From an uncultured Spirochaetaceae bacterium (GTDB lineage Bacteria > Spirochaetota > Spirochaetia > SZUA-6 > DRHE01), in NCBI GenBank assembly GCA_964389305.1, contig CAYMEK010000007.1, positions 12,911 through 76,910 of the forward strand: a stretch of 64,000 nucleotides of DNA, given 5' to 3'. Under the pieces are notes generated by a model. It worked only from the letters and a program-made list of their open reading frames with translations, did not search any database and was not told the DNA's origin. Every line of letters starts with the position of its first letter. Within the stretch, counting starts at the first letter, position 1. Positions 1 through 20,630 of the stretch are shown piece by piece. The translations under genes were made by a program, and so were the position numbers.

Positions 1-483
1 TATGGCCACCATCTGCTTCTCGCCGCCACCGATGGCCTGGGGGTACTTGTACAGATACTCCTCCGGCGGCAGATCCACTGTCCTGAGGAGCTCTCCGATC
101 CTTTCCAGCCGCTCGGTGTTGTTGCTGTGGATTCGATGTACTTTCAGTGGTAAGCTCAGGGTTTCCTTTATGCTCCAGCACGGGTTCAGAGAAGACCCGG
201 GGTCCTGGAACACGATGCGGATGTCCCGCTTCAGGCGTAGGGGCCGCCTGCTGGAAACCACCCCTATGTCTTGACCCCTGAAAAGGATCCTTCCCGAGGT
301 AGGCTTGTAGATGCCGACGAGCGTATGAGCTACGGTGGTCTTCCCCGAACCCGATTCGCCAACCAGACCGAGCGTCTCGCCCTGCCGGACCGAGAAGCTG
401 ACGGTGTCCACTGCCCGTACGGTCCCCGCTTTGGTGGGGAAGTACTTCTGAAGCCCTTCGACGGTCACGATATCCTGCGGCAA
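1..483 (-). CDS. Peptide/opine-type ABC transporter ATP-binding protein (DppF/OppF-like), 5' part only; gene runs past window start
   Basis: Not in the ORF track because there is no stop in the window. My minus-strand translation from TTG at 483 (preceded by GAGAGGAG) reads LPQDIVTVEGLQKYFPTKAGTVRAVDTVSFSVRQGETLGLVGESGSGKTT... (Walker A). It stays open to position 1 and follows the DppD-like gene directly. Confidence 0.85.
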   Translation of the reverse strand, partial: MPQDIVTVEGLQKYFPTKAGTVRAVDTVSFSVRQGETLGLVGESGSGKTTVAHTLVGIYKPTSGRILFRGQDIGVVSSRRPLRLKRDIRIVFQDPGSSLNPCWSIKETLSLPLKVHRIHSNNTERLERIGELLRTVDLPPEEYLYKYPQAIGGGEKQMVAI

Positions 484-502
484 CTCGGCTAGCTCCTCTC
501 GT

Positions 503-1489
503 CTATCTCCCCTCGTAAAGAAAACAGGCGACATTGTGGCTGTCCCCTATTTTGAAAAACGGGGGCCGTGTCTTTGTGCAGACAGGCAGAGCCCGGCTGC
601 AACGTGGGTGGAACCTGCATCCCGCCGGGGGATTGAGGTAGTTGGGGATCCTGCCAGGAATGCCCTTGCTTACACCCTCGCCGGTGAGCTTGGGCACGGT
701 CTTCAACAACGCCTGCGTGTAAGGATGCAGCGGTTGGGCAAAAAGCTCCTTTGTCCTGGCTTCCTCCACGATATTTCCGGCATACATGATGCACACCCGG
801 TCGGTCACGTTCCTTATCACGCCCAACGAGTGGCTTATCAGCAGAATCGAAGTGCCTTTTTTTTCTACCAGATCATCCAGACGCTTTAAGATCTGATCCT
901 GGATTGTGACATCTAGATTCGTTGTGGGCTCGTCGGCCAGCAGCAGTCTGGCTTCGGTACTGAAAGCCTCGCTGATACAGACCCTCTGTCTCATGCCTCC
1001 GCTCAGCTGAACAGGATAGTTGGTCAGTATCCTCTCCGGGTCGGGCATGCCGGTTTCCTTGAGCACGGCAACGGCCTGTTCACGGATTGCCTTCCGCGAC
1101 CGCTGATCCCGGGTCTTGCCTTTGGCCAATTGTTTCAAGATGTCCTCGAGCTGGTAGCCGACCGTAAAAACCGGGTTAAGGGCCGAGAGGGGGTCCTGAA
1201 AGATGGCGCTGATCTGTTCCTTGCGCAGCCCCCGAATCTCACGGGGCTTCATCTTGAGGATGTCCTTCCCCTTATATACGATTTCGCCGCCACGGATCTC
1301 CGCGGTAGGCTTGGGTAAAACTTGGAGGATCGACTTTATCGTGGTCGTCTTCCCGCAACCCGTTTCTCCCACTAGACTTACCTTCTCTCCCTCGGAGATG
1401 GCGAGCTCCACTCCGTTCAATACCTTCAGCATGCCCGCGAACGTCCTGTAGTGAACGTGCAGGTTTTTTATGATTAGAAGCGGTTTCAT
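503..1489 (-). CDS. Peptide/opine-type ABC transporter ATP-binding protein (DppD/OppD-like)
   Basis: ORF 503..1603 trimmed to the internal ATG (MKPLLIIKNLHVHY) just downstream of the permease stop. Walker A GETGCGKTT, signature LSGGMRQR, Walker B LLLADEPTT, C-terminal GCRFHPRC motif typical of oligopeptide-type ATPases. Confidence 0.9.
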   Translation of the reverse strand: MKPLLIIKNLHVHYRTFAGMLKVLNGVELAISEGEKVSLVGETGCGKTTTIKSILQVLPKPTAEIRGGEIVYKGKDILKMKPREIRGLRKEQISAIFQDPLSALNPVFTVGYQLEDILKQLAKGKTRDQRSRKAIREQAVAVLKETGMPDPERILTNYPVQLSGGMRQRVCISEAFSTEARLLLADEPTTNLDVTIQDQILKRLDDLVEKKGTSILLISHSLGVIRNVTDRVCIMYAGNIVEEARTKELFAQPLHPYTQALLKTVPKLTGEGVSKGIPGRIPNYLNPPAGCRFHPRCSRALPVCTKTRPPFFKIGDSHNVACFLYEGR

Positions 1490-1497: not shown

Positions 1498-2388
1498 CTA
1501 GACTTCCTCCACGGCAAACATGTCCCGCAGACCGTCGCCCACCAGATTGAAGGCCAGGATTATGGTCACGATTGCTAGTGCCGGGAATATGGTCATCCAC
1601 CATTCGGCTGGCAATCTCTTCGCCCCGTCGGCCACCATCGTTCCCAACCCGGGTTTGGGAGGCTGTACTCCCAGACCGATAAAGCTCAACGAAGCGCCCA
1701 GGGTGATAACGAATCCCATATCCAGCGTTATCTTCGTCAGCAGAGGCCCCACACAGTTCGGGAGGATCGATCGGCCGAGAATATGCGCTCTGCGGGCCCC
1801 GGTTAGCTCGGCCTCCACCACAAAGTATTCATTACGCAATGAAGCGGTGATGGAATACACCAGCCGGCAGTACCAGGGCCACCACATCAGTGATATGGCC
1901 ATCATTTGGTTGCGGATGTTGGGACTGAGCATGGCGGTTATCGCCAGCGCCAGAATCAGGGGAGGAACCGCAAGAAAGATATCCGTGATCCTCATGATCA
2001 CGGTCTCGAGCTTCGTCCTCTGGTAGTAGCCGGCGACCAGGCCCAGGACGACCCCTGGTGGTACGCTCAGGCTTATGACGACCACCGCCAACATCAGGGA
2101 AAAGCGATATCCGAAAATCACCCGGGTGAACACATCCCTGCCCACAGTGTCCGTCCCAAAGAGATGCTTGGCGCTTGGCGGCTGGCTGGATTCACTGAAG
2201 TTGGCGTAGGGGCCGGCATGCTCGGGATAAGGCGTGATCCACGGGGCGAGGATGGCGGCCAGGCTGATAAGAATGATGATCATCAGCCCAACGACGGAGA
2301 GGCCATTGCGGGTGAACTTGTACCACCCTTTGGACAGTCTTCGGCCTCTTCGCGACCAGGCCGTCAGGAGGAGCTCTCGCATCCGCAT
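1498..2388 (-). CDS. ABC transporter permease (DppC/OppC-like)
   Basis: 296-aa ORF with several hydrophobic spans and an EAA-loop-like ELTGARRAHILGRSILPN. Tightly packed between the permease and ATPase genes. Confidence 0.9.
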   Translation of the reverse strand: MRMRELLLTAWSRRGRRLSKGWYKFTRNGLSVVGLMIIILISLAAILAPWITPYPEHAGPYANFSESSQPPSAKHLFGTDTVGRDVFTRVIFGYRFSLMLAVVVISLSVPPGVVLGLVAGYYQRTKLETVIMRITDIFLAVPPLILALAITAMLSPNIRNQMMAISLMWWPWYCRLVYSITASLRNEYFVVEAELTGARRAHILGRSILPNCVGPLLTKITLDMGFVITLGASLSFIGLGVQPPKPGLGTMVADGAKRLPAEWWMTIFPALAIVTIILAFNLVGDGLRDMFAVEEV

Positions 2389-2391: not shown

Positions 2392-3411
2392 CTATTCTCC
2401 CTTTCCTCGTAGACGTATCCTGGGATCGAGGAACGACACGACAATATCGACAAGAACATTCGCCACTGCAAAAGCGACCCCTATAACCAGGACCACCGCC
2501 ACGATGGCATTCAGGTCCTTGTTTAGCATCACGGTGACCGCGTAGCGGGCAAATCCCGGCCACATGAATACCAGCTCCACGAGAAAGGCATTGGCGATGA
2601 TGAAGGCGACGTCCAGACCCATGATCGAGACGGTCGGTATCAGGGAGGGTTTGAGCAGGTATTTGAAAATGATGGATCGCCTGGGAATACCGTACACGAT
2701 GTGCGCCGCCACGTAGTCCTTCTGCAGGTTGTCGACTATTGAGGAACGAGTGACCCGGCTCTCCTGAGCCAGGTTGGCTATCGCCAGGCTTACCGCCGGC
2801 AGAATAAGGTGGCTCAGAGCGTTCAGAGCAATACGGGGGTGACCTGTTATCAGGGCGTCGAAGATAAAGAAGCCTGTGATCCTGGGTGGAGGGCTCAAAG
2901 TCAGGCTGATTCGCCCGATAGCGGGCGCCAGGCCTAAGAGATGGCTGAATATGAACAGAAAAAAGATGGCCAGAGCAAACGGGGGAGTGGCAATTCCTCC
3001 GTAGGAGACCAGCCGCGACAGGCCGTCGAACCAGGAGTTTCTGAAGAAACCGGCGAGCACCCCGGTCACCTGCCCGACGACCAGGGAGATCAGAAAAGAG
3101 CAGAACACCAGCTCCAGGGTGGCCGGAAGATAGTCATTCAGGTCTTCCATGACCGGACGGTGCGTGTACAGCGACACTCCCGCGTCCCCGCGTACCATGC
3201 CTCGAAGCCAGAAGTAGTATTGCACCGGAAACGGTCTGTCCAGGTGGAGCTCTTCTCTGAGCTTCTGGACCTGCTCCTTGGTGGCCAGAGAGCCGAGCGC
3301 TACCCGCGCCGGGTCGCCCGGCACCACCCGGGCTATAAAGAAGATGAGCACGGAAAGGCCGAAGAGTACAACAATGGTCTGTACCAGCCGCTGCAGTATG
3401 TATTTAATCAT
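2392..3411 (-). CDS. ABC transporter permease (DppB/OppB-like)
   Basis: ORF 2392..3426 trimmed to MIKYILQRLVQTIVVLFG, a typical DppB/OppB N-terminus. Polytopic membrane protein. Confidence 0.9.
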   Translation of the reverse strand: MIKYILQRLVQTIVVLFGLSVLIFFIARVVPGDPARVALGSLATKEQVQKLREELHLDRPFPVQYYFWLRGMVRGDAGVSLYTHRPVMEDLNDYLPATLELVFCSFLISLVVGQVTGVLAGFFRNSWFDGLSRLVSYGGIATPPFALAIFFLFIFSHLLGLAPAIGRISLTLSPPPRITGFFIFDALITGHPRIALNALSHLILPAVSLAIANLAQESRVTRSSIVDNLQKDYVAAHIVYGIPRRSIIFKYLLKPSLIPTVSIMGLDVAFIIANAFLVELVFMWPGFARYAVTVMLNKDLNAIVAVVLVIGVAFAVANVLVDIVVSFLDPRIRLRGKGE

Positions 3412-3443
3412 GACAGTCTTACACACTCTCTGGCATGGAAACG

Positions 3444-3472
3444 GGGAGGATGAGATGCACGCTCATCCTCCC
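3444..3472 (-). terminator. Intercistronic stem-loop between the binding-protein and permease genes (partial terminator or mRNA stabiliser)
   Basis: Perfect 11-bp stem GGGAGGATGAG / CTCATCCTCCC with a 7-nt loop. On the transcribed strand it is followed by CGTTTCC, a weak U-tract. Confidence 0.5.
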
Positions 3473-3507
3473 GGATAAATCGCCCCAAGTATTACGCTCC
3501 TGTTAAG

Positions 3508-5163
3508 CTACTTTTTCGTAAGATCGATCCTCCAGTTGTGCAGGTTGGCGGTCGGACCTACGATAGGGAACTTCTCTTTCGGACCTATGATGTACGTCTG
3601 GCTGGTGAACTGTGCGGGAATCTCGTAGGGATAGAGCGCAAGAGCCACAGAAGATATTTTCTCCTGAAGCTGGCGGTAGATCGCTGTTCTGGCATCGAAA
3701 TCCAGGGTGTTTCGAGCCTTGTCGATCAACGTCCCGATCTCTGCGTCTTTGTACCAGTGCGCGCTGTAGATCCCTCCGACATTATCGGGGTGGTACATGT
3801 AGAAAAGGAAAGAATCCGGCGATGGATACACTACGGGGAAGATGAAAATCGTCATGTTGGGTGTCGTATCCGCGGCTCCACATTCCGCCGAGTACTGTGC
3901 CCAGGGAGGACCGGCGATTTCCATCTTTATTCCCAACTTGGCCAGGTCAGCCTGCAGTTGCAGTCCAATCTCCTCTTCCGCTTCCAGACCTGCACAATAG
4001 TGAAAGACAACCTTCACTTCTTCGGGCTTGTACTTCGACAGTGCCAGCTCCTCTCGTGCCTTTGCCAGGTCCTGCTTTCTCGGTTGCGGGGGGACCTTAA
4101 CATATCCGGGCAGCCCAGAGGAATAAATACCCGCTTCCCGGGCGCCGAAGGGCTTGTACTCGTTCGTTATTGCTTCGTAATCGAAAGCGTACTGCAGCGC
4201 CCTTCGGAAATGCAGGTCGTCGGTTGGCGGCTTGGCGGTGTTCAACCATATTGTCCAGTCCTGAGTCCACATCGGGTGCAGCTTCAGGCTCTTCGTATTC
4301 ATGATCTCCTGCAGCGTTTTCCGGCTGAAACCGCCGTTGATTTCCAGGTCAAGCTGCTTGCTGTTGAGCATCATCATCAGTGTTGCTGTTTCATAGTTCA
4401 TGATGAAAATGAGCTTCTCGATCGGTACCTGGTTTTCGCCCCAGTCTTCCCAGCCGAGGAAGTAGTCTTGGTAGCGTACTGCTTCCAGGCGTTCGCCCGG
4501 CTTGTGGCTGATCATCCTGTAAGGACCGCTGCCTGCGTCGTGGTCCGCAAGCCACTTCTGTCCGTAGTCGCCGAACTCCCCGTAGTCGCCAGCCGCTTTG
4601 TTCTCGAGCACGAGCTTCTTGCTCACGGGCCAGAACAGGGTAAGGGTGTTTGGGAAGATCGCGTTGGGCTTATCCAGGATGAAATCGACCACGTACCTGC
4701 TGACCACCCGGGCAGTCACTTTTCCCAGCGTACCCGAGTAGCCCTTTCCCATGGCCAGAAGTCTCTGCATGGAGAAGGCCACGTCCTCCGCCGTAAGCTC
4801 GCTGCCGTCATGGAACTTCACGCCTTGCCGCAGGGTGAAGCGCCAGTGGCCGACCTTGCCGTCCACGGCTTCCCATTTCTCGGCAAGATGGGGCCTCAGC
4901 TTGCCGTCGGGCGTCGGGTAGATCAATGGACTGTAAAGATTGTAGACCACCTGGGTATCGTACCAGTCCATGGCCAGGGCCGGGTCCGCGAGAATCACCG
5001 GCATGCCGTTGATGACGGCTACGTTCTCCGCCATCGGCGCGGCCGCTTTCTCTTCTGCCTTTGCCGGCTGTTTTGCCTCTTCCTGTTTGCCCCCACTGAA
5101 GAGCAAAACAGGCGAGACCAGAACACAAGCCAGCAGCAGAAGCACCACGATTTTCTTGGTCAT
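3508..5163 (-). CDS. ABC transporter substrate-binding protein, family 5 (peptide/opine/nickel type)
   Basis: 551 aa with N-terminal signal/lipoprotein-like MTKKIVVLLLLAC. Size and composition are typical of DppA/OppA-family SBPs. AGGAGG lies 8 nt upstream of the ATG. Confidence 0.85.
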   Translation of the reverse strand: MTKKIVVLLLLACVLVSPVLLFSGGKQEEAKQPAKAEEKAAAPMAENVAVINGMPVILADPALAMDWYDTQVVYNLYSPLIYPTPDGKLRPHLAEKWEAVDGKVGHWRFTLRQGVKFHDGSELTAEDVAFSMQRLLAMGKGYSGTLGKVTARVVSRYVVDFILDKPNAIFPNTLTLFWPVSKKLVLENKAAGDYGEFGDYGQKWLADHDAGSGPYRMISHKPGERLEAVRYQDYFLGWEDWGENQVPIEKLIFIMNYETATLMMMLNSKQLDLEINGGFSRKTLQEIMNTKSLKLHPMWTQDWTIWLNTAKPPTDDLHFRRALQYAFDYEAITNEYKPFGAREAGIYSSGLPGYVKVPPQPRKQDLAKAREELALSKYKPEEVKVVFHYCAGLEAEEEIGLQLQADLAKLGIKMEIAGPPWAQYSAECGAADTTPNMTIFIFPVVYPSPDSFLFYMYHPDNVGGIYSAHWYKDAEIGTLIDKARNTLDFDARTAIYRQLQEKISSVALALYPYEIPAQFTSQTYIIGPKEKFPIVGPTANLHNWRIDLTKK

Positions 5164-5299
5164 CTCTTTGCACCTCCTGTTATGAAATTACCGCGAGAAC
5201 GCGAGAACCACGGTCTCGCCTCCCGCGTTATAGCCGCTAAACGAATCGGGCTCATAACTAGCCGGCGAGCCCTCATGAAGACAAGGAGGCCGGATGTGC

Positions 5300-6193
5300 T
5301 CAAATGCGCTCCTTATCCGAGCCGCCAAGCAGCGCGTCGATTCTGGCCTTGTCCTCCTCTTGAAGGGGAAGTCTTGGACCCCGGCAAGAACCGCCGACCA
5401 GTTCTTTCTTGTCGAGCACGTATTTGAGAGTTTGCTGAGTCTTGCCTTCATATTCGAGATACCGAAGCATCGGCAGCATCTCCTTATAGAGCTCCCATCC
5501 GCGCTCCAAATCTCGATGGACCACAATAGAGTCGAAGAGAGCGACAGCCGGCTTCGGCATGATGTTTCCAATGACACACACCCATCCCTTTGCCCCCATC
5601 AGGAACGACTCGTACGCCAAGTCCTCCCAGCCGCAGAAAATCGTAATCCGATCGTCCGTCAGGGTTCGTATCTCCGTGATTCTCTTGATGTCCCCGGTGC
5701 TCTCCTTGATGCAGGCTACGTTCGGCAGCTCGGCAAGGCGGGCGACTGTTTCAGGCTTGATGTCCACCTTGGAGCTCCAGGGATTGTTGTAGACTATGAT
5801 CGGAATCTCGACGGATTCGGAAAGGCGCTGGTAATGAACATGGATTTCAGCCTGGTTTGGCGTGTAGTAATACGAAGGCAGCACCAGGACCCCCGCAGAA
5901 CCCATCTCTTTTGCCTGTCTGGCATAGCGAATGGCTTTGTCGGTCGTCTCCGCCGTGGCGCCGATAACTACAGGCACTCTTCCTCCCACCGTCTCCAGTG
6001 CCGCTTCAGCGACCTTTATCTTCTCCCGGTCTTCAAGACTGGCAAACTCGCCCGTACTGCCCAAAGCTACGATGCCGTGAACACCCTGAGCGACCAACCA
6101 CTCAACGTTCGTGCGGATTCCTGCGTAGTCTACCTCGCCGTCCGATCTGAAAGGTGTGACAATGACTACGTAAACACCTTCAAATGTGTTCAT
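5300..6193 (-). CDS. DapA/N-acetylneuraminate-lyase family class I aldolase-type enzyme (candidate pyrroline-4-hydroxy-2-carboxylate deaminase)
   Basis: 297 aa with a GSTGE motif, VYNNP and CIKEST (Schiff-base Lys region). Overlaps the upstream epimerase gene by 4 nt. Confidence 0.8.
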   Translation of the reverse strand: MNTFEGVYVVIVTPFRSDGEVDYAGIRTNVEWLVAQGVHGIVALGSTGEFASLEDREKIKVAEAALETVGGRVPVVIGATAETTDKAIRYARQAKEMGSAGVLVLPSYYYTPNQAEIHVHYQRLSESVEIPIIVYNNPWSSKVDIKPETVARLAELPNVACIKESTGDIKRITEIRTLTDDRITIFCGWEDLAYESFLMGAKGWVCVIGNIMPKPAVALFDSIVVHRDLERGWELYKEMLPMLRYLEYEGKTQQTLKYVLDKKELVGGSCRGPRLPLQEEDKARIDALLGGSDKERI

Positions 6194-7266
6194 GTTTCCT
6201 CTATCCTCCTGCCATCTTCGCCAATCTGCAACTTCGCACTTGTTGAATCCTCCAGCGTTACACCGAGCAGGAACCCCGCCTTCAGCGGATCGTCCGGGTC
6301 TACAACAGAATGGTTGATCCCGGTCACATAAGCGCTGCCGGTTATCTCCGGAATGACAGCCGGTAATCCCTCGATTTCCGTGCCTTCCACTACGCGAGAA
6401 CGGAAGAGCGTTCCTAAAATGCTCTCATGAATGAATACCTCACCCACCTCGATTTCGCCTTTTGCATAGAGAACCGCCAGCTTGGCCGACGTGCCGGTAC
6501 CGCAGGGAGATCGATCGACAGCTCCCGGGGGAATTATAACGGCATTCTTCAGGTGTGCTTCAGGGTGCTCGGCGGGACCGAAGAACTCGACGTGGGTCAG
6601 TCCACGGATAAAGGGCCTGGTAGGATGCTGCACATCCGTCTGGGCATTGACGGCCTCTCGAACTGCTATTCCTGCATTCACCAGAGTACGGGCATGCTCG
6701 GGTTTGATCGTCAATCCGAGCTGTCTTGCCTCCAGGATCGCATAAAAGTTCCCTCCATAGGCGATATCCAGGGTAATTCGCCCGTATCCGGGTACCTCCA
6801 CATCCATCTCCTTCTTGTAGAGAAAGGAAGGAATGTTCGTGAAGGTGACGCTTCTGGCCACCAGCCCCTCGACCGCGACCTTCGCCGTGACCAGACCGGC
6901 AGGGGTATCGAGCTTGATCACCGTCACGGGCTCCTTGACAGGCACGATCCCCGCTTCGACCATCGCCGTGCAGCACCCCACCGTATCGTGCCCGCACATG
7001 GGCAGGTATCCGCCGACTTCCATGAACACAACTCCTATGTCCGCCTCAGGCCTGCAGGGCTGGGTCAGAACGGCTCCAGACATGACCTCATTTCCTCTGG
7101 GCTCGTAGAGGAGCATAGTTCTCAGGTGATCCATATGCTTTTGCAGGTACAACATCTTCTCGCTCATCGTTTCCCCGGGTATGTAGGGAATGCCGCCGAT
7201 GACGGTTCGGGTTGGCTCACCTGCGGTATGCGTATCGATCGTGCTGATCATTCTGTCGAATCTCAT
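6190..7266 (-). CDS. Proline racemase family protein, Cys/Cys type (candidate 4-hydroxyproline 2-epimerase or proline racemase)
   Basis: 358 aa. Both catalytic positions carry Cys (LPMCGHDTVG and DRSPCGTGTSAK), the pattern of racemases/epimerases rather than the dehydratase subclass. Confidence 0.85.
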   Translation of the reverse strand: MRFDRMISTIDTHTAGEPTRTVIGGIPYIPGETMSEKMLYLQKHMDHLRTMLLYEPRGNEVMSGAVLTQPCRPEADIGVVFMEVGGYLPMCGHDTVGCCTAMVEAGIVPVKEPVTVIKLDTPAGLVTAKVAVEGLVARSVTFTNIPSFLYKKEMDVEVPGYGRITLDIAYGGNFYAILEARQLGLTIKPEHARTLVNAGIAVREAVNAQTDVQHPTRPFIRGLTHVEFFGPAEHPEAHLKNAVIIPPGAVDRSPCGTGTSAKLAVLYAKGEIEVGEVFIHESILGTLFRSRVVEGTEIEGLPAVIPEITGSAYVTGINHSVVDPDDPLKAGFLLGVTLEDSTSAKLQIGEDGRRIEET

Positions 7267-7314
7267 GCTGGTTCCTTTCTCTTGCGTTTACCGACCCTGC
7301 CGACCGAGTCGAGA

Positions 7315-9183
7315 TCACACGGTATCCAGTCCAAGTCGCATCAGCGTCTCTTTTGTCGGAGCGCCCGTCGCTAGGTCCCATCCGCGGGCCTCGTAGTACT
7401 CATCAAGCATTGCCTCGTAATCCGCTATCCCGCATTCTCTGATTTTCTGGTACTTGCCGAACAACGGAACGCTCTTTACTCGCTCCGGCAACCGATCGTC
7501 CTCGCGTGCAAGTCCCTCACGGATGTTGAACAGACGCTGCAGGTTGACAGTCCGTTCTCCCGCAGCCAGCAAATCCCGTGCTGTGTACTCGCGGCCCGTC
7601 AACGCCGAGAGCATTTCCGCATAATGATCCAAAGTCAGACCGGCGTACATGAAGAACTTGCACACACCAACGATATCCGGTACAACCAGTCCGTCCTGCA
7701 GCAGTTTTACCGCCTGTCCTTTTCCCGCCTCCCCCCACCGATCTACGCTCTCAGGATCGGGTAGTCCGTACTTCATCAATCCCCAGTCCATCTTCCCTCT
7801 ATCCCAAGCCATCGCCTCGACCGGATGAATGTGACACATCCCTCGATTGGCCGTACCGTAGGCGAGCGCCAGAGCTTTGCCTGACCGTGGATCGTGGGCG
7901 GGGCCCTCGAGGCCTTTAACGTGAATGGCAAACGCTGCGGCTTTCGCGCCGATTTTCTCAGCGGCTCTGCGCACCCCCTCCGCTAGAATGTCCCCCAACC
8001 CCTTGCGTTCGGCAATCAATCTCACCAGAACGGGCAATACCTCCCCGTTTCCCCATGCCAGGTCCAAGCCGCTCAGCTCGCCGCCGGAAATCAGTCCGGC
8101 CTGGCAGCATTCCACGGCAAAGGCGATCAGCGCCCCGGTACTGATCGTATCAAGGCCCAATTCATTGCAGAGGTAGGTGCTGTGCACCGCAGCGTCCAGA
8201 TCTTCGTTCAGAACATAGGCAGTGAAGCAGGAAATCGATTCGTATTCCGCTCCACCGTGCAGCGGCGTCTGGTACGCTCCTCCATCCACGCGAACCTTTC
8301 TTCCACAGGCGAGGGAGCATCCCCGGTAGCAGCCGTAGCTTCGCACCAGGTTTCCGCTCTGAAAAGCGTCAAACAGTTGAGCGCCCCTGCCCCACGAGTT
8401 GGACTGCCAGTTCTTGGTCGGCCAGTCTCCGCCTTCATCGTTGCCGGGCAGGTCCCCCATAGTGCCGGACTCCCGGAAAGCGGCGGACGCGGGGCTGCCT
8501 CTGAGAGCCGCAAACGCCTCTTTGAGAGCCCTTTTCAACCGCTGCGGGTCCGCCGCCTCCACTGAGTGCGAGCCTCCTACGGCAATGCCGAGCAGGCGCT
8601 TCGACCCCATTACGGCGCCCGCGCCGCCCCTGCCGGCGGCCCGGTCTTCGGACATCACGCTGGCGAATCTGACCCGGTTTTCACCGCCCGGCCCTATGCA
8701 CATGATCGAGGCTCTTTTATCCCCGAGCTCGCGGCGCATAAGATCTCTCTTTTCGCTGGTGGTTTTCCCCAGCAAGCGGCCTGCCGGTCTGATCTCCACT
8801 TCGCCGTCTCTCACCACCAGGTACACGGGCTGCTCCGAGCTGCCCTCTACGACTAAGGTGTCGAATCCCGCTCTCTTGAGGTCCGGTCCGAAGTCTCCTC
8901 CGCAGCGCGATTCCCCCCAGGCCCCGGTCAGCGGCGACTTGAAGCAGAGCTCTACGCTGCCTCCGCCAGGAATCCTGTTCAACGACAGCGGACCGGTGCA
9001 AAAGACCAGCTTGTTCTCTGCTCCCAAAGGGTCCGTTCCCTTGGACAGCTCTTCGTACAACAGCCTGGCCCCGCAGCCGACGCCCCCGACATACAGCCGG
9101 AGGGCCTCGGCATCAACTGGCTCTGCCCGGCTTCTTCCCGTGGTGAGATCTACTGTCAACCGGCGACTCGTGCCTCCGTTCAT
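7315..9183 (-). CDS. Aldehyde:ferredoxin oxidoreductase family (tungsto/molybdopterin, AOR)
   Basis: 622 aa with AOR-like N-terminus (RLTVDLTTG...LRLYVGGVGCGARLLYEE), a Cys cluster GCYRGCSLACG and GLDTISTG. Length and layout fit the AOR family. Confidence 0.85.
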   Translation of the reverse strand: MNGGTSRRLTVDLTTGRSRAEPVDAEALRLYVGGVGCGARLLYEELSKGTDPLGAENKLVFCTGPLSLNRIPGGGSVELCFKSPLTGAWGESRCGGDFGPDLKRAGFDTLVVEGSSEQPVYLVVRDGEVEIRPAGRLLGKTTSEKRDLMRRELGDKRASIMCIGPGGENRVRFASVMSEDRAAGRGGAGAVMGSKRLLGIAVGGSHSVEAADPQRLKRALKEAFAALRGSPASAAFRESGTMGDLPGNDEGGDWPTKNWQSNSWGRGAQLFDAFQSGNLVRSYGCYRGCSLACGRKVRVDGGAYQTPLHGGAEYESISCFTAYVLNEDLDAAVHSTYLCNELGLDTISTGALIAFAVECCQAGLISGGELSGLDLAWGNGEVLPVLVRLIAERKGLGDILAEGVRRAAEKIGAKAAAFAIHVKGLEGPAHDPRSGKALALAYGTANRGMCHIHPVEAMAWDRGKMDWGLMKYGLPDPESVDRWGEAGKGQAVKLLQDGLVVPDIVGVCKFFMYAGLTLDHYAEMLSALTGREYTARDLLAAGERTVNLQRLFNIREGLAREDDRLPERVKSVPLFGKYQKIRECGIADYEAMLDEYYEARGWDLATGAPTKETLMRLGLDTV

Positions 9184-9204
9184 CGGTCTGCTTCCAGCCC
9201 CCTT

Positions 9205-10380
9205 TCACCGCTCCAGAAACCTCGAGAACATCAGATGCTCAATTGGAATAGAGGTCTCCTTGCCCGTTATCATTTCTGTTATCAGCTTCCCCGTAATCGG
9301 AGCAAGCCCGACACCGTCTCCCTCATGACCGGCGGCAATGTAGAACCCCGGCACATCCTTCACTGCAGACACAATCGGAAAATGATCAGGACAATAGGGA
9401 CGCAGGCCGGCATAAGCACGAATCACGTTGATGTCTCTCAACACGGGGAAGAACCGCAGGGCTCTCCTCGCCAATCCCCTCATGACTTCTATTGAAACAT
9501 TCGTATCGTAGCCCACAAAGGCACGACTGCTTCCGACCAGAAAGTTGCCTGCTTGGGTAGGCTCGAAAACGAATGCGATTCCCATTCTTTCCAGATCTGG
9601 ACTGACATTCCGGCGGTAGCTCGAATCTCCAAACTTTGCCATCAAGTAGCCGAACTCGACGATCTTTCTGCTCCCGATTGTGAACGTTCGCTCCGCTACC
9701 AGAAGCTGACCCTGCCGCGGCCGGATAGGTATATCCACGCCCACCATTCTGCCTATGTCCCCTGCCCAAACCCCGGCGCAGTCGACAACGTATTTCGTCC
9801 TGTACTCTTCGTCCACGGTTTGCACCGAACGTACCGCCCCGTCCTTACTGCGGGTGATGCGCCGAACCGGACTGTAGCTGCTGATGACGGCACCCAATTT
9901 CTCGGCTTCGCGGCACAAGCCGAAAGTGAACGCCATGGGGTTGATGGCCGCATCGCAATCGATCTCCACGGCTCCGATGATATCCTCGGCCAGAAACGGT
10001 TCCTGCGCCTGGATCTCATCCTGGCTCAGCATCCTGATCGGATATCCGTCAGCGGCCTGCCGGGCGGCCAGCGCTTCGGCAGCCTTCCACTCCACCTCAC
10101 TCTCGATCAGCAGAACGCTTCCTCGCTCGACGTACTCAAAATCGTAGCTTAGTTCCGCGGCCAGTGTTTTGAAAAGTTTTTGGCTGGCATACGCCATCTG
10201 AGTGTCAATCCCCGGTTGTTTGTCGTGAATCAGAACGTTACCTTCACCGTGGCTCGAGGTCCCCGAAGCGATGTCCCCCCTCTCAAGAACAACGACCCGG
10301 AGGTTTTCCTTGGCGAGGTAGTAGGCGACACAGGCCCCGATCACTCCCGCCCCGATCACTGCCGCGTCAACAGTCCTCAT
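9205..10380 (-). CDS. FAD-dependent oxidoreductase, DAO family (beta-type subunit of heteromeric imino/amino-acid dehydrogenase)
   Basis: ORF 9205..10503 trimmed to MRTVDAAVIGAGVIGACVAYYLA (dinucleotide fold directly at the N-terminus). Overlaps the preceding small Fe-S ORF by 14 nt. Confidence 0.85.
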   Translation of the reverse strand: MRTVDAAVIGAGVIGACVAYYLAKENLRVVVLERGDIASGTSSHGEGNVLIHDKQPGIDTQMAYASQKLFKTLAAELSYDFEYVERGSVLLIESEVEWKAAEALAARQAADGYPIRMLSQDEIQAQEPFLAEDIIGAVEIDCDAAINPMAFTFGLCREAEKLGAVISSYSPVRRITRSKDGAVRSVQTVDEEYRTKYVVDCAGVWAGDIGRMVGVDIPIRPRQGQLLVAERTFTIGSRKIVEFGYLMAKFGDSSYRRNVSPDLERMGIAFVFEPTQAGNFLVGSSRAFVGYDTNVSIEVMRGLARRALRFFPVLRDINVIRAYAGLRPYCPDHFPIVSAVKDVPGFYIAAGHEGDGVGLAPITGKLITEMITGKETSIPIEHLMFSRFLER

Positions 10381-10648
10381 TCTCGACTTCACTAAGTGCT
10401 CCGAAGGTAATGGGTCGTACGGGAGGTCTTTTCGTTGCCGGCTCGATTTCCTCCGGTCTCTTACCCAATTGCCGGCACAGAATCTCTTCGACAAAACGTC
10501 CACAGGAGCGGCCCTGGCACAAACCCATGCCCGCCCTTGTCCTCCTCTTCACGCCGGTAACATCGCGAGCGCCCTCGATGATGGCCCGCTTTATTTCCCC
10601 GAGCGTGATCTCCTCGCACCGGCAGACGTACACCTCATCCTCATGCAT
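10367..10648 (-). CDS. Small (2Fe-2S)-binding protein, BFD-like
   Basis: Trimmed to MHEDEVYVCRCEEITLGEIKRAI...GMGLCQGRSCG. The CxC...CxxxxC pattern is typical of BFD-like [2Fe-2S] domains. Confidence 0.7.
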   Translation of the reverse strand: MHEDEVYVCRCEEITLGEIKRAIIEGARDVTGVKRRTRAGMGLCQGRSCGRFVEEILCRQLGKRPEEIEPATKRPPVRPITFGALSEVENEDC

Positions 10649-10649
10649 C

Positions 10650-11159
10650 TTACCAGCCCCTCTTGATCCCCCGCACACGATCGGCCAGGCCCTGGGGCAC
10701 AGCGATGGTGAGGACTGCTGTTCTATCGTTGCTCTTGGGATTCGAGACCCTCACGACCTTTGCCGGGCATACGGACGCCCCGGCTCTGTTTACGGCCCAG
10801 ACCTCCTGACCTTTTTTCGGCAGAGGTAGAAACTCATACGGGAAGCTGACAGCGGCAAACTCGTCGGAGTATGTCTTATCCACCAGGAAGATTGCCAGAC
10901 CGGGACAGCAGGGCAGGCAGCGACCGCAACCGACACAATCCTCTTCGATCAACACCGGAAGGTTCGTGATGGGCTCGCCCACCCTGATCGCCCCGAATGG
11001 GCACGCTGATTCACAAGGATCGCAAGGAATCTCCTGCGCACACTCTATGACCGCCACCGGCCCGAGCAGGAACCGCTCCTTTGAGGGATAGCCGCTCGAG
11101 CCAACCAGCTCTTCCGTAGTGAGTGAGCCGTTTTCTTCCAGTGACACCTGCACCTCCAC
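10650..11159 (-). CDS. 4Fe-4S dicluster domain protein
   Basis: 169 aa with CDPCESACP and CVGCGRCLPCCP motifs. Confidence 0.7.
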   Translation of the reverse strand: MEVQVSLEENGSLTTEELVGSSGYPSKERFLLGPVAVIECAQEIPCDPCESACPFGAIRVGEPITNLPVLIEEDCVGCGRCLPCCPGLAIFLVDKTYSDEFAAVSFPYEFLPLPKKGQEVWAVNRAGASVCPAKVVRVSNPKSNDRTAVLTIAVPQGLADRVRGIKRGW

Positions 11160-11163
11160 GACT

Positions 11164-12306
11164 CTAACCTGCGGCTTCCGAACCTCGCCTCCTTCTGGAT
11201 CGACGGGCTTGGCAGGACTCGACGATTGCCCGTTTCGCCAAAAGTCTATCCTCCCCGAATGGCCCCAGCCGTAGCCCTTTCAGGCGGCTCCAGAGCTCTT
11301 TTCTGGACTCCGAAGCCTTCTCGGCAGACACATACCCCAGCGAGGCTGCGATCGCCACTCCGGCTATCCTTCCCTCCTCCATGGCCGTGTTGGCTTCCTC
11401 GATTCCGCTGGCATCGCCCGCAACATAAATACCCGGATGTGTAGATTCCATATTCTCATCGTGCAACGGTACCCATCCCCCTAAAAGGGGATGATAAGCG
11501 CATTCACAACCACCCATGCGAGCAAGCTCGGTCAGAGGTTTCAAACCGGCGGCGATTGCGATGGTATCAACTTGAAACACTTTCTCCGATCCGCTAATGG
11601 GTCGCCATCTCTCATCAACGCGACAAACCACCGCTTCCTCCACTGCCTCATGACCTCTGGCTTCCAAGACTGCCTGAGAGGTGTGGATCGGCACCCCGAC
11701 CCTTCTGATCTTGGCGGCGTGGACTCCGTACCCCTTGACGTAAGGAGCCGCTTCGACAACGGCAGCCACTTCGGCTCCGGCCTGCAGAAGCTGATACGAG
11801 ACGATCAGTCCGACGTTTCCCGAGCCGATCATCAGAACCCTCTTCCCTGGCAGGACCCGGTGCACGTTGATCAGGGTTTGGACCGCACCTGCGCCCATCA
11901 CGCCGGGCAATGTCCAGCCTGCAAACCTGACGGCGTTCTCGGATCCACCGGCCGCGATAACCACCTTTTGCGCCTGTATTACCTCCACGGTCTGCTCATG
12001 GCCGGCCGTTTCCCGCTTGACGGCCACTTTCTTGTCTTTAAACAATCCTGTCGCCACGCTGCTCAGCCAGGTCTGTACTCCATATCTATCCGCCTCTGCG
12101 AGCAACTGCTCGGCGATATCGAATCCTCTGATTCCCGCCCGGTGCTGCTTGGAGCCGAAGAACTTGTGAATCTGTTTAAACAACTGGCCGCCGGCCTTTC
12201 TGTTCTCATCCACAACCAGGACTTGAGCCCCGCTTCTGCCGGCCTCAATGGCGGCACAGAGACCGGCAGGACCGCCTCCAATAACGAGAACCTCGCAGGA
12301 GGTCAT
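11164..12306 (-). CDS. NAD(P)/FAD-dependent oxidoreductase (alpha-type subunit; OoxA / PDH-alpha / LhpF-like)
   Basis: 380 aa with two Rossmann motifs, VIGGGPAGLCAAIEA and MIGSGNVGLIVSYQL. Confidence 0.85.
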   Translation of the reverse strand: MTSCEVLVIGGGPAGLCAAIEAGRSGAQVLVVDENRKAGGQLFKQIHKFFGSKQHRAGIRGFDIAEQLLAEADRYGVQTWLSSVATGLFKDKKVAVKRETAGHEQTVEVIQAQKVVIAAGGSENAVRFAGWTLPGVMGAGAVQTLINVHRVLPGKRVLMIGSGNVGLIVSYQLLQAGAEVAAVVEAAPYVKGYGVHAAKIRRVGVPIHTSQAVLEARGHEAVEEAVVCRVDERWRPISGSEKVFQVDTIAIAAGLKPLTELARMGGCECAYHPLLGGWVPLHDENMESTHPGIYVAGDASGIEEANTAMEEGRIAGVAIAASLGYVSAEKASESRKELWSRLKGLRLGPFGEDRLLAKRAIVESCQARRSRRRRGSEAAG

Positions 12307-12629
12307 TACCCCTCTCGCTTGCAGGAAGAGCCACGCTGGGTCTGTATGACCATTCCTTCCTCAACCTGCGTAACACAGGTCCGCACATTGGGAACCCCAT
12401 TCACGACCATGACGCAGTCCGTACATTGTCCAATCCCGCAGAATATCCCGCGAGGCTCTCGTCTGTTGGTCGTATAGCGATGGACTCGTATGCCGCCCGC
12501 CAGCAGCGCCGCGGCGATCATCTCTCCCTTCCTCGCCTGCAGTCGCCTTCCATCCACACTGATATTCACAAGCTCCACCGATCCTTCCGGTCCCAGAATC
12601 GGGTGATCGGTAATCCTGTTCCCCGACAT
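12306..12629 (-). CDS. Small (2Fe-2S)-binding subunit (HcnA / sarcosine-oxidase-alpha N-terminal type)
   Basis: ORF trimmed to MSGNRITDHPILG (GGAGAGAG upstream) and contains FCGIGQCTDCVMVVNG. First gene of the minus-strand cluster. Confidence 0.75.
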   Translation of the reverse strand: MSGNRITDHPILGPEGSVELVNISVDGRRLQARKGEMIAAALLAGGIRVHRYTTNRREPRGIFCGIGQCTDCVMVVNGVPNVRTCVTQVEEGMVIQTQRGSSCKREG

Positions 12630-12861
12630 GCCAGACTCTCTCCGCCTCGCCGTTTGCCCCGCAACTATTACCAGTGTACCACCGGCATATAGAATGAAAC
12701 TTAAGCTTCGACTCGGTTTTTGGCACAATCCCGTCTGAAATCAATCCGCCAGGCCCCGATCCCGGGCTGCACCTTTTGCGGTTTGCGCGATCAGGCCAGC
12801 CGCAAAAGCCTCTCTGGAGTCCATCCAGTTCGGCGAGACTCTCGGTGAGTCACAGCTCACC

Positions 12862-12890
12862 TTGCAATTGGGCCGCGATTGTCCTACCAT
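12862..12890 (+). promoter_or_regulatory. Candidate sigma70 promoter for the AraC/PAS regulator
   Basis: TTGCAA (12862-12867), 17-nt spacer, TACCAT (12885-12890). About 30 nt upstream of the GTG start. Confidence 0.3.
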
Positions 12891-12926
12891 GCTCACAAAG
12901 CATGAAAGCCTAATCGGGGCCTGGAC

Positions 12927-13718
12927 GTGGACACAACATCTTCACTGAAGTTACATGAGAGGGCGGTCGCAGGATTGACTTCAGAAGATATCGACGACAT
13001 TCGAGGCATATTCCTTCTGCCGGTGATCGAGGAGCTGTTCGATCCCGTCTCCGACATCGTTTTCTTTGTAAAGGACCGGAAGGCCAGATACATCGCCGTA
13101 AACAGGACCCTAGTCCAACGCTGCTCTCGCAATTCGAAATCCGAGCTCCTTGGGAAGACTACTTTGGAGGTTTTTCCCGCTCCAATGGCTGAAACCTACC
13201 ACGAGCAGGATAAACGCGTGCTGAAAAACGGTACTGAAGTACTGGATCGGCTCGAGCTCCATCTCTACATCAAAGGGAAACCCGGATGGTGTATCACCAC
13301 GAAGCAGCCGCTGCGCAGCAGCAGCGGGAATATTATCGGCCTGGTTGGGATCTCGAAGGACATTCACGTGCAAGACGTGCGCGAAGAAGATTTCAGAGAG
13401 CTGGCCAGAGCGGTGGAATACATCCAGACGCACTACGACAGGCACTTGAATATTCAATCCCTCGCCCGGATGTGCGGGCTGTCCGTCTACCAGTTGGAGC
13501 AGCGGATGAAACGGCTGTTCGGTCTGACGGCCGGCCAATTCATCATCAAGACGCGAATCCAGGTAGCGTGCGATGTTTTACGTTCTACCGACGCCTCGAT
13601 CGTTAAAGTCGCCCTGGACACCGGTTTTTCCGATCAAAGCGCCTTTACGCGCCAATTCAAGGTCACCACCGGTATGACGCCCACCCAGTACAGAGAAGAG
13701 CAACTCAGAGAGGGGTAG
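12927..13718 (+). CDS. AraC-family transcriptional regulator with N-terminal PAS-like sensor domain
   Basis: 263 aa with a GTG start. C-terminal double HTH (LARMCGLSVYQLEQRMKRLFG ... ALDTGFSDQSAFTRQFKVTTGMTPTQYR). Divergent from the catabolic cluster. Confidence 0.85.
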   Translation: MDTTSSLKLHERAVAGLTSEDIDDIRGIFLLPVIEELFDPVSDIVFFVKDRKARYIAVNRTLVQRCSRNSKSELLGKTTLEVFPAPMAETYHEQDKRVLKNGTEVLDRLELHLYIKGKPGWCITTKQPLRSSSGNIIGLVGISKDIHVQDVREEDFRELARAVEYIQTHYDRHLNIQSLARMCGLSVYQLEQRMKRLFGLTAGQFIIKTRIQVACDVLRSTDASIVKVALDTGFSDQSAFTRQFKVTTGMTPTQYREEQLREG

Positions 13719-13797
13719 AGGCTCGTACGACCACCGATCCCTGGCCGGACCGTAAGTATCTGGGCGGCCTCCAGGCCCCGTCCTTTTATTCCTGGCG

Positions 13798-14727: not shown

Positions 14728-15019
14728 ACCCGACTCCTTTCGTTCGTGCCCTGCTGACGCTCCCCGCCCTGCGAGAGATCGCGACGTTAACGATCAAGGA
14801 CCGGGGAAGCTTCCAGTTCATCTTAAAAAAGATTTTCCCGTTGTCAATAGATCACGGTGCGTGCGTAGGGCCTCTAACCTATACGGCCTATTGACCTTTT
14901 ATTGATAAAGCTATTAGCTTTTTTAAAAGTCAAGGTAAATGCATTCGCAGGGATTTGCTCGCGCCAGGGAGCCATTTCTTCACTTCGCGTCTTGAAACCC
15001 GGCGGATCGTGATCACCCT

Positions 15020-20439: not shown

Positions 20440-20589
20440 CCGGCATAATTGCCGCTCTCAGTACCTAGGCCTCATACCTTAGAGCGGCCGGCAATACCGT
20501 GAACGGCGGCATTTTCAGATTTTTCCCGCAGCCGGACCTTTAAAGAAGGTATATTTTTACACAAAATCAATAAAAATCGGTTTTTTCTC

Positions 20590-20618: not shown

Positions 20619-20630
20619 ACTGCTTCAAAC

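Follow-up and report, generated by a model that had tools for sequence, protein, structure and literature searches.

A putative hydroxyproline operon with an embedded aldehyde:ferredoxin oxidoreductase in an uncultured spirochaete

The window analysed here, a 64-kb stretch of contig CAYMEK010000007.1 from an uncultured Spirochaetaceae bacterium, carries a minus-strand operon that spans position 12629 to the window start. It encodes, in transcription order, a heteromeric dehydrogenase, an aldehyde:ferredoxin oxidoreductase (AOR), a proline-racemase homologue, an enzyme of the dihydrodipicolinate synthase (DHDPS) family and an ABC importer. Gene assignments are based on open reading frame (ORF) calling and on Pfam and NCBIfam scans. 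Judged from sequence, the chances are about even that this is a hydroxyproline (Hyp) catabolic operon of an anaerobe, with a route via 2-oxoglutarate semialdehyde to 2-oxoglutarate. It is probable that the AOR is the aldehyde-oxidising step of the pathway, be it in this classical version or in an aldolase version considered below. In the best reading of the operon, the AOR has displaced the NAD(P)+-dependent semialdehyde dehydrogenase, and the host is best explained as a fermentative, anaerobic spirochaete. The AOR variant of the oxidative Hyp pathway would be new, with a linkage conserved in at least four phyla. Full-text searches gave no paper in which hydroxyproline or 2-oxoglutarate semialdehyde is connected with AOR or with tungsten enzymes, in agreement with an earlier note on this DNA, which was aware of no characterised ferredoxin-coupled version.

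The aldehyde-oxidising enzyme in anaerobic and aerobic clusters

The AOR aligns over its full length with Pyrococcus furiosus AOR (PDB entry 1aor; 373 bits). It has the features that define the tungsten-oxidoreductase (WOR) family, namely the AFOR_N and AFOR_C domains, the four cysteines of the 4Fe-4S cluster, and Thr243, Glu313 and His448 (P. furiosus numbering); Tyr427 is replaced by His. The enzyme looks catalytically competent.

No homologue of the aldehyde dehydrogenase (ALDH) superfamily was detected by tblastn with two ALDH queries, either in the window or in 55 loci of the AOR clade (L001–L049 and L132–L137; L numbers designate surveyed loci), including the syntenic loci L047 and L049. 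The earlier note had found no ALDH in its part of the window, and the absence thus extends to every AOR-clade locus searched. Of the four features that define the oxidative trans-4-hydroxy-L-proline (t4Hyp) pathway, three are present at the family level; the fourth, the ALDH, is absent within the window.

In many aerobic loci (9 from Bacillaceae and about 18 from Actinomycetes, Paenibacillus or Brevibacillus) the gene after that for the DHDPS enzyme encodes an ALDH, an arrangement that is frequent, not universal; no AOR was present in any Bacillales or Actinomycete Hyp-type locus surveyed. According to Zhao et al. 2014 (PMC4113996), t4Hyp supports growth of Bacillus cereus ATCC 14579 and Streptomyces lividans and induces their proline-racemase-superfamily (PRS) genes together with the adjacent D-amino-acid oxidase, DHDPS and ALDH genes, and Streptomyces-type PRS proteins are 4-Hyp epimerases in vitro. 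The surveyed B. cereus loci were equated with these clusters by their content. A complete aerobic counterpart, with an ALDH in the AOR slot, is found on a Paenibacillus megaplasmid (L138). Its genes encode a sugar ABC transporter, an Xaa-Pro peptidase, a DAO-family protein (50% identical to that of the window), a PRS enzyme (56%), a second PRS enzyme, a DHDPS-like enzyme, the ALDH, two 2Fe-2S proteins, an FAD/NAD oxidoreductase and a beta-L-arabinofuranosidase. This cluster, at 3442–17597 of the Paenibacillus cellulositrophicus plasmid, looks like a degradation locus for plant Hyp-arabinosides of the extensin type, a substrate suggested by the arabinofuranosidase.

Among anaerobe loci, two from Anaerolineae (L011 and L020) have full dehydrogenase, DHDPS-like and AOR genes in this order, and two others (L005 and L012) have DAO, DHDPS-like and AOR genes. 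In an Actinomycetota metagenome-assembled genome (MAG; L018) the AOR gene directly follows a dehydrogenase 64–68% identical to that of the window. A Bipolaricaulota MAG (L144) encodes a PRS enzyme (74%), a five-subunit dehydrogenase, a DHDPS-like enzyme (62%), a Creatinase_N protein and then an AOR that is only 37% identical; this AOR belongs to another clade and was recruited independently to the same slot. Like the window, the Anaerolineae, Actinomycetota and Bipolaricaulota loci have an AOR and no ALDH. The neighbourhood survey proposed in the earlier note accordingly links AOR to DHDPS-like and dehydrogenase clusters across four phyla, with PRS and AOR together in L144. The note's placement of AOR where an ALDH is expected is supported by the ALDH in that slot in L138 and in Bacillaceae and Actinomycete loci, and by the second-clade AOR of L144.

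At 3369–6032 of L144, an ILVD/EDD-family dehydratase gene adjoins a second DHDPS-like gene, which groups with Escherichia coli YagE/YjhH; yagEF and yjhGH of E. coli are the same gene pair. The one AOR of this locus may also serve a pentonate branch.

The clade to which the window AOR belongs is large. More than 6,000 database proteins match it at E <= 1e-50, and a group of approximately 60% identity extends over Anaerolineae, Spirochaetota, Atribacterota, Desulfobacterota, Halanaerobiales and others. In 36 clade loci from species representatives, a DHDPS-family gene lies within 1.5 kb of the AOR gene in 15, and in 9 of the 20 loci in which both flanks extend at least 1.5 kb; among the informative loci, roughly one in two lacks a DHDPS gene adjacent to AOR. 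The contexts are diverse. L010 and L134 comprise ROK, Zn-ADH, Fe-ADH, MoaD-like, AOR, DHDPS-like, MR_MLE and lactonase genes, with genes for a peptide-type ABC transporter divergent from these. An assignment of these two loci to sugar acids alone was rejected: their MR_MLE proteins score best on muconate-cycloisomerase, cis-3-Hyp-dehydratase and dipeptide-epimerase models and their Zn-ADH proteins on threonine-dehydrogenase models, which leaves the context ambiguous. L132 has two MTTB methyltransferases, an old yellow enzyme (OYE) homologue, cyclases, AOR and an E2 component; in L043, MR_MLE, MoaD-like and AOR genes lie near a DAO/Fer2_4/Pyr_redox-BFD set. For L016, the neighbouring ORFs selected for the scan gave no Pfam match. 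L005, L011, L012 and L144 encode AcnX, a member of the cis-3-Hyp dehydratase family.

L136 comprises GntR, serine-dehydratase-like Fe-S enzyme, MoaD-like, AOR and DHDPS-like genes and adjoins PRS, HypD-like glycyl-radical enzyme, activase and PepX genes. The latter group (10778–17414) is convergent with the AOR/DHDPS module. It encodes a Ser/Cys-type PRS protein, a radical-SAM activase, an X-Pro dipeptidyl peptidase and a glycyl-radical enzyme of 801 aa, whose match to the HypD model (741 bits) falls short of the cut-off (1100). The locus may combine two strategies of hydroxyproline use. In L136 (6145–7713) and L044 (8124–9695) the first gene of the MoaD-like/AOR operon encodes a fused beta-alpha L-serine-ammonia-lyase-like Fe-S protein (about 522 aa), with a GntR regulator and a Liv-type amino-acid ABC transporter as neighbours; the L136 operon includes the DHDPS-like gene. 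The MoaD/ThiS-like ORF, of 92–93 aa, ends in Gly-Gly, has no Pfam match and lies directly upstream of AOR in L043 (9675–9953), L044 (9692–9973), L134 (7682–7960) and L136 (7710–7991). The window contains neither a homologue of this ORF nor an MR_MLE gene. Pairs of non-pyrrolysine MTTB-family methyltransferases occur beside dehydrogenase, DHDPS and AOR genes in L020 (931–3847) and beside AOR alone in L132 (5019–7949), and could demethylate proline or hydroxyproline betaines anaerobically.

In our reading, the AOR of this clade is a generalist aldehyde oxidiser that has repeatedly been built into catabolic operons beside an aldehyde-forming DHDPS-family enzyme. A 2026 review (PMC13328260) counts 92 clades in the WOR family, of which only five have a defined physiological role, describes the characterised AORs as broad-range detoxifiers, and mentions neither proline nor semialdehydes. 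A detoxifier or redox valve could also travel with catabolic operons while standing outside the pathway, a conventional ALDH elsewhere then oxidising the semialdehyde. The unrelated contexts of L132, L044/L136 and L010/L134, the loci with no adjacent DHDPS gene and the broad range of characterised AORs suit this explanation, as does a Thermotogae cluster (L143) with no AOR on its contig. We nevertheless consider it very unlikely. The AOR gene is embedded between pathway genes with short spacers and is kept in L047 and L049, it lies directly downstream of a dehydrogenase or DHDPS-like gene in four phyla, and a second-clade AOR occupies the same slot. ALDH genes are moreover consistently absent from AOR-bearing loci and frequent, though not universal, in AOR-less aerobic ones.

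The racemase homologue and the dehydrogenase

The racemase homologue has both catalytic cysteines, in the motifs MCGHD and DRSPCGTG. Its highest NCBIfam score is with the proline-racemase model (466 bits, cut-off 556), followed by the 4-Hyp-epimerase model (355 bits, cut-off 376), both below cut-off, and its top PDB matches are true proline racemases (ProRs). It is 50% identical to AsProR, 48.5% to the Trypanosoma cruzi enzyme, 46.8% to the bifunctional Thermococcus litoralis enzyme (TlProR) and 45.4% to the Sinorhizobium pSymB homologue. Identities are 54–57% with Bacillales proteins (including the B. cereus group), approximately 51% with Streptomyces proteins and 74% with proteins of Thermotogae and Bipolaricaulota MAGs. 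The enzyme is separable from ProR only by its pocket residues and gene context.

The ligand sites of the superfamily have been defined (PMC4364671): only ProR-like enzymes have Phe at site 1, Hyp-type enzymes have Ser or Val at site 1 and His at site 4, and site 5 distinguishes ProR (Phe), TlProR (Trp) and HypE (Cys or Tyr). At the TlProR positions F62/C88/L221/W241/C251, the window enzyme reads S-C-H-I-C (Ser62, His221, Ile241), true ProRs read F-C-L/C-F-C, and the Sinorhizobium meliloti pSymB homologue, which is probably HypRE, reads S-C-H-Y-C. A profile-based scan of one genome per species yielded 80 subfamily loci with proteins 47–74% identical to the window enzyme. All but one of them (79/80) have an S-C-H-[I/V/Y]-C pocket, and nearly all cluster with homologues of DAO, Fer2_4, Pyr_redox and BFD proteins and with a DHDPS-family gene. 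Sporomusa aerivorans DSM 13326, by contrast, shows the epimerase and no other part of the cluster within 10 kb.

The window protein therefore has what defines an epimerase in sequence, that is, the PRS fold, the Cys/Cys dyad and Hyp-type ligand sites. A Stickland-type proline racemase would have Phe at sites 1 and 5, where Ser and Ile are found, and linkage to PrdAB would be expected; Pfam scans of the main window ORFs and the cluster annotation gave no Prd genes. Pocket residues and subfamily membership together point to a 4-hydroxyproline-epimerase type. The assignment of the cluster to the hydroxyproline type, made in the earlier note, is thereby strengthened, the subfamily having t4Hyp-induced aerobic members. 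The note's reservation that the enzyme might prove to be a proline racemase holds in part: in overall similarity true ProR (50%) is almost as near as the 4-Hyp-epimerase groups (51–57%), and pocket residues and gene context are of the Hyp type.

The dehydrogenase comprises five subunits, a DAO beta subunit, a Pyr_redox alpha subunit, two 2Fe-2S proteins and a 4Fe-4S ferredoxin-like protein. With DAO, Fer2_4, Pyr_redox_2 and BFD domains, it conforms in sequence to the DAO-family heteromeric dehydrogenases of the LhpBEF type. The DAO subunit is 45–50% identical to the DAO proteins of Bacillales Hyp-type clusters, and the candidate dehydrogenase of the earlier note is thus homologous to that of t4Hyp-induced clusters. 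In PDB comparisons the DAO subunit scores 120 bits with glycine oxidase and 106 bits with the beta subunit of proline dehydrogenase (PDH; 1y56_B). The Pyr_redox_2 subunit scores 77 bits with 2gag_A and 53 bits with PH1363, and has two dinucleotide-binding (GxGxxG) motifs, at residues 10 and 161. By tblastn, the 4Fe-4S ferredoxin-like subunit has homologues in L011, L018, L020, L143 and L144 and none in 76 Bacillales, Actinomycete and other loci (L147–L222). Among the loci searched, this subunit is found only in anaerobe versions of the dehydrogenase.

It is quite improbable that the operon serves another substrate, such as 3-hydroxyproline, D-proline, an N-methylated or betaine derivative, a product of Hyp-glycosides or Hyp-peptides, or an opine-like compound, with the AOR oxidising whatever aldehyde the DHDPS-like enzyme releases. 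PRS members are often promiscuous between 4-Hyp and 3-Hyp, according to two studies (PMC4113996, PMC4364671). The transporter is of the peptide/opine type, and opine, sarcosine and L-proline dehydrogenases belong to the same heteromeric family as the dehydrogenase of the window. Related loci encode AcnX, non-pyrrolysine MTTB (L020, L132) and members of the enolase superfamily that match the model for cis-3-Hyp dehydratase. However, the pocket signature is shared with t4Hyp-induced and in-vitro 4-Hyp-epimerase groups, and 4-Hyp, unlike proline or 3-Hyp, supplies the 4-hydroxy-2-oxo or imino acid on which a DHDPS-family step depends. In addition, the window has no gene for a pyrroline-2-carboxylate reductase, ornithine cyclodeaminase (OCD), AcnX or MTTB.

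The DHDPS-family enzyme and its aldehyde product

The DHDPS-like enzyme passes the NCBIfam dapA cut-off narrowly (214.9 against 206.15). Aligned with E. coli DapA, it keeps Ser/Thr44-Thr45, Tyr106-Tyr107, Tyr133 and the Schiff-base Lys161, and has Ser at the position of Arg138, which binds aspartate semialdehyde in DapA. Several specific assignments were rejected. The Arg138 replacement excludes a true DapA. An L-2-keto-3-deoxyarabinonate dehydratase (KdaD) is excluded by Tyr133, as KdaD enzymes have a catalytic Glu in place of this conserved Tyr; KdgD dehydratases keep the Tyr (PMC13398020). The PDB gives no call on specificity: the best match, 3NA8, is PA0223, a protein without known function and not LhpC, and there was no solved structure of a pyrroline-4-hydroxy-2-carboxylate (Pyr4H2C) deaminase among the matches considered. 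The Azospirillum plasmid loci L130 and L142, considered as a source of characterised LhpC and LhpA, are not the lhp cluster.

Residues 44, 45, 106, 107, 133, 138, 161 and 163 (E. coli DapA numbering) divide the enzymes of Hyp-type clusters into two types. A canonical type, S-T-Y-Y-Y-[S/T]-K-S, is found in the window, in all AOR-linked genes and in Bacillaceae. A second type, S-L-x-x-Y-D-K-F, here labelled LhpC-like, is found in Actinomycetes, Paenibacillus and Brevibacillus, and the HypD-like protein of pSymB resembles it. A neighbour-joining tree joins the window type with the Bacillaceae Hyp-cluster type as sister groups and places the LhpC-like clade next to this pair. NanA, the YagE/YjhH aldolases and E. 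coli DapA branch outside the Hyp-cluster types, with deep nodes below 50% bootstrap. The grouping with sugar-acid aldolases that the earlier note had named as a possible refutation was thus not obtained in this tree.

DHDPS type and adjacent ALDH type co-vary in the aerobic loci L147–L222: the canonical type stands beside ALDHs resembling betaine-aldehyde dehydrogenase (BADH), StyD or aminoaldehyde dehydrogenases, and the S-L-x-x-Y-D-K-F type beside a GucD-like 2-oxoglutarate-semialdehyde dehydrogenase (KGSADH). The latter ALDHs score best on GucD/2,5-dioxovalerate dehydrogenase models (595 and 436 bits). This may reflect two lower-pathway chemistries even in aerobes. A simpler rule, by which the canonical type goes with AOR and the LhpC-like type with ALDH, was rejected, as Bacillaceae clusters pair the canonical type with an ALDH.

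With the same upper pathway, the DHDPS-like enzyme could instead work as a reverse-DHDPS aldolase. The open form of the intermediate, 5-amino-4-hydroxy-2-oxopentanoate, would be cleaved to pyruvate and aminoacetaldehyde, AOR would convert the aldehyde to glycine, and hydroxyproline would yield pyruvate and glycine, not 2-oxoglutarate. Such a cleavage is chemically natural, since Pyr4H2C is the five-membered analogue of 4-hydroxy-tetrahydrodipicolinate. All canonical aldolase/DHDPS residues are kept except Arg138, which binds a carboxylate that aminoacetaldehyde does not have; the DapA cut-off is passed; and Tyr133 is not replaced by Glu as in KdaD. The canonical type stands beside a BADH/aminoaldehyde-dehydrogenase-like ALDH in all nine Bacillaceae loci, and the LhpC-like type beside a GucD-like KGSADH in about 18 loci.

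We regard this cleavage as unlikely all the same, though as a serious rival. The literature search gave no report of it, and the established enzyme for the step is a deaminase of the same superfamily. KdgD dehydratases also retain the Tyr, the co-variation of DHDPS and ALDH may be operon co-inheritance, and the tree places the window type nearer to other Hyp-cluster enzymes than to the YagE/YjhH aldolases, with the same caution on its deep nodes. In work by Watanabe from 2007 and 2012, Pyr4H2C deaminases and KGSADHs are each reportedly polyphyletic, so a different DHDPS lineage need not mean a different chemistry. On sequence criteria, 2-oxoglutarate semialdehyde is the more likely product in comparison with pyruvate and aminoacetaldehyde. 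The earlier note's choice of this aldehyde is tentative: the DHDPS-family enzyme is of the canonical, not the LhpC-like, type, and its nearest aerobic relatives stand beside BADH/aminoaldehyde-dehydrogenase-like ALDHs.

Operon layout, proposed pathway and known systems

The ORF calls and domain scans reproduce the minus-strand run, gene order, AOR spacers and divergent AraC/PAS regulator described in the earlier note (Table 1). AOR is separated by 21 nt from the DAO gene and by 48 nt from the racemase homologue. The racemase-homologue and DHDPS genes overlap by 4 nt, and the dehydrogenase genes overlap or lie 1–4 nt apart. A gap of 136 nt separates the DHDPS gene from that of the substrate-binding protein, and the operon thus extends left of 5300. 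The regulator gene is divergent, at a distance of 297 nt, and its L047 counterpart is 85% identical and in the same position. The DAO ORF reaches 10503, beyond the assigned start, and that of ABC ATPase 1 reaches 1603. The start of the BFD-like subunit was set at an internal Met, which gives 93 aa as in L049, with gene lengths in L047 and L049 compared.

Operon synteny is kept in two metagenome relatives, L049 (AOR 95% identical) and L047 (82%). Given this synteny and the adjacency of AOR to DHDPS-like or dehydrogenase genes across phyla, the gene arrangement is not due to chance. In both relatives, the next genes after the ABC transporter encode hydantoinase/oxoprolinase A and B (L047 15106–17261, L049 11960–14095), a place equivalent to the left of the window end; they may provide a further step such as lactam opening, or be unrelated neighbours.

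Table 1. Genes of the operon and its divergent regulator, with positions in the window.
Feature	Position	Strand	Basis
AraC-family regulator, N-terminal PAS_4 sensor domain	12927..13718	+	Pfam PAS_4 and HTH_18/HTH_AraC
2Fe-2S subunit (Fer2_4) of heteromeric amine dehydrogenase	12306..12629	-	Pfam PF13510, 101 bits; homologues in all related clusters
Pyr_redox_2 flavoprotein subunit (alpha-like)	11164..12306	-	Pfam; NCBIfam soxA 148 bits (sarcosine-oxidase-alpha region)
4Fe-4S ferredoxin-like subunit	10650..11159	-	Pfam Fer4_7/LdpA_Fe-S-bd
BFD-like 2Fe-2S / sarcosine-oxidase A3-domain subunit	10367..10648	-	Pfam Fer2_BFD and SO_alpha_A3
DAO-family FAD subunit (beta-like), candidate catalytic subunit of cis-4-hydroxy-D-proline dehydrogenase	9205..10392	-	Pfam DAO, 239 bits
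AOR (tungstopterin WOR family, single large subunit)	7315..9183	-	Pfam AFOR_N and AFOR_C
PRS Cys/Cys enzyme, 4-hydroxyproline 2-epimerase-type pocket	6190..7266	-	Pfam Pro_racemase; ligand-site residues
DHDPS/NAL-family Schiff-base enzyme, candidate for the Pyr4H2C step	5300..6193	-	Pfam DHDPS, 224 bits
Family-5 (Opp/Dpp/Nik-type) ABC substrate-binding lipoprotein	3508..5163	-	Pfam SBP_bac_5, 213 bits; syntenic in L047 and L049
ABC permease (BPD_transp_1)	2392..3426	-	92–98% identical and syntenic in L047/L049; called gene there matches BPD_transp_1_N/BPD_transp_1
ABC permease (OppC_N/BPD_transp_1)	1498..2388	-	Comparison with L047 and L049
ABC ATPase 1 (ABC_tran and oligo_HPY)	503..1489	-	Comparison with L047 and L049
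ABC ATPase 2, truncated at the window edge (residues 1–178 of 338)	1..534	-	tblastn with L049 gene, 96% identity

Elsewhere in the window, a methionyl-tRNA synthetase shows 76% identity to its counterparts in uncultured Spirochaetaceae MAGs, and its best matches all come from Spirochaetota. A trehalose-6-phosphate-phosphatase-like gene is followed by one for a 1061-aa fusion of a HAD (beta-phosphoglucomutase-like) domain and a GH65 phosphorylase (15020–19410). An NrpR-type nitrogen regulator (HTH_12 and NRD1_2) precedes a NuoF-like FMN/Fe-S protein and a glutamate-synthase-domain protein (19423–25404). A minus-strand pair of genes encodes a 518-aa hydantoinase_A-like and a 363-aa S-Me-THD-like protein (28679–31323). 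An 826-aa protein whose only domain is a C-terminal URO-D domain has a histidine kinase and a sigma-54 response regulator as neighbours (44331–46811), and a 626-aa D12-class adenine methyltransferase with a family-B DNA polymerase (49539–61756) possibly marks a mobile element.

In the proposed pathway, the imino acid or a Hyp-containing peptide would enter through the Opp/Dpp-type ABC importer, and the PRS enzyme, as its pocket residues and subfamily suggest, would epimerise trans-4-hydroxy-L-proline to cis-4-hydroxy-D-proline. By homology to t4Hyp-induced clusters, the five-subunit FAD/Fe-S dehydrogenase would oxidise the latter to Pyr4H2C. The DHDPS-family enzyme would use its lysine Schiff base to convert this imine to an aldehyde, most likely 2-oxoglutarate semialdehyde with release of ammonia. 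The tungsten-type AOR, placed here by its conserved linkage and the lack of an ALDH, would oxidise the aldehyde to the acid, 2-oxoglutarate, and reduce ferredoxin. The divergent AraC/PAS protein would regulate the operon. More speculatively, the Fer4- and NAD(P)-site-bearing dehydrogenase could use reduced ferredoxin from the AOR to pull the uphill oxidation of the D-imino acid (electron confurcation), in a host without a respiratory chain.

Several observations weigh against this proposal. Overall similarity of the racemase homologue to true ProRs (47–50%) is near that to the 4-Hyp-epimerase groups (51–57%). The DHDPS-like enzyme does not have the LhpC-like signature found beside GucD-type KGSADHs, and the B. 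cereus ALDH beside the canonical type scores higher on phenylacetaldehyde (602 bits), betaine-aldehyde (590) and aminobutyraldehyde (530) dehydrogenase models than on GucD (430). In L004, L006, L010, L016, L134 and L136 the same AOR clade is found with a DHDPS enzyme 60–64% identical to that of the window and with no amine dehydrogenase nearby, so the AOR is not Hyp-specific. L143 has a cluster with a 59%-identical DHDPS-like gene and no AOR on its 11.5-kb contig. The ALDH search of the window covers 64 kb of the genome. Finally, scans for consensus promoters and terminators gave nothing above chance, and it is therefore gene spacing that suggests co-transcription.

Hydroxyproline, from collagen and plant cell-wall glycoproteins, is a major source of carbon and nitrogen, and the anaerobic routes so far known for it use glycyl-radical enzymes. 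If the proposal is correct, an oxidative, ferredoxin-coupled route would be a second anaerobic strategy, present in Spirochaetota, Chloroflexota, Actinomycetota and Bipolaricaulota, and a large tungsten-oxidoreductase clade would gain a defined physiological role. It would also be a clear case of an ALDH displaced by an AOR, in which the low potential of the aldehyde/acid couple is conserved as reduced ferredoxin. The two distinct DHDPS/ALDH pairs in hydroxyproline clusters raise a question about the lower-pathway chemistry of B. cereus. Were the aldolase version true, an undescribed route from hydroxyproline to pyruvate and glycine would exist both in anaerobes, with AOR, and in common aerobes, with the BADH-like ALDH of the B. 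cereus group.

Glycyl-radical routes, based on the HypD dehydratase, have anaerobic hydroxyproline use in common with the window system, and a HypD-like enzyme lies beside the AOR/DHDPS module in L136. The HplG C-N lyase belongs to a further glycyl-radical route of anaerobic hydroxyproline metabolism. The chemistry proposed for the window is, in contrast, oxidative and not a radical dehydration, and the window has no glycyl-radical enzyme, activase or AcnX gene.

The four-subunit L-proline dehydrogenase of Thermococcales (PDH alpha-beta-gamma-delta; pdhA/F/X/B in Thermococcus profundus) is likewise a heteromer of DAO-beta and Pyr_redox-alpha subunits with ferredoxin-like and small subunits; its subunits are only distantly related to those of the window, as the scores with 1y56_B and PH1363 indicate. 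In T. litoralis the dehydrogenase is clustered with a Cys/Cys enzyme of the ProR superfamily, also in an anaerobe (PMC4364671). The specificity sites differ, however (Phe/Leu/Trp in TlProR, Ser/His/Ile in the window enzyme), and no DHDPS-like or AOR gene is described in that cluster. With P. furiosus AOR and the WOR family, the window AOR shares the two-domain architecture, the 4Fe-4S cysteines and the Thr243/Glu313/His448 set; it is also a single large subunit, with no WorS-type polyferredoxin gene adjoining. It differs in the His at Tyr427 and in being a fixed member of a dedicated catabolic operon.

A further closely related system is the oxidative t4Hyp pathway, known as LhpA-G in Pseudomonas and Azospirillum, as HypRE/O/D/H in Sinorhizobium, and from the B. 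cereus and Streptomyces clusters. It shares with the window system clustered genes for the first three enzyme families, and LhpR is an AraC-type regulator, like that of the window. In Bacillales and Actinomycete clusters the epimerase is 51–57% and the DAO protein 45–50% identical to that of the window. The window system differs in its host, an anaerobic-type spirochaete, in a DHDPS-like enzyme of canonical rather than LhpC-like type, in the additional 4Fe-4S ferredoxin-like subunit, and in having a tungstopterin AOR in place of the ALDH.

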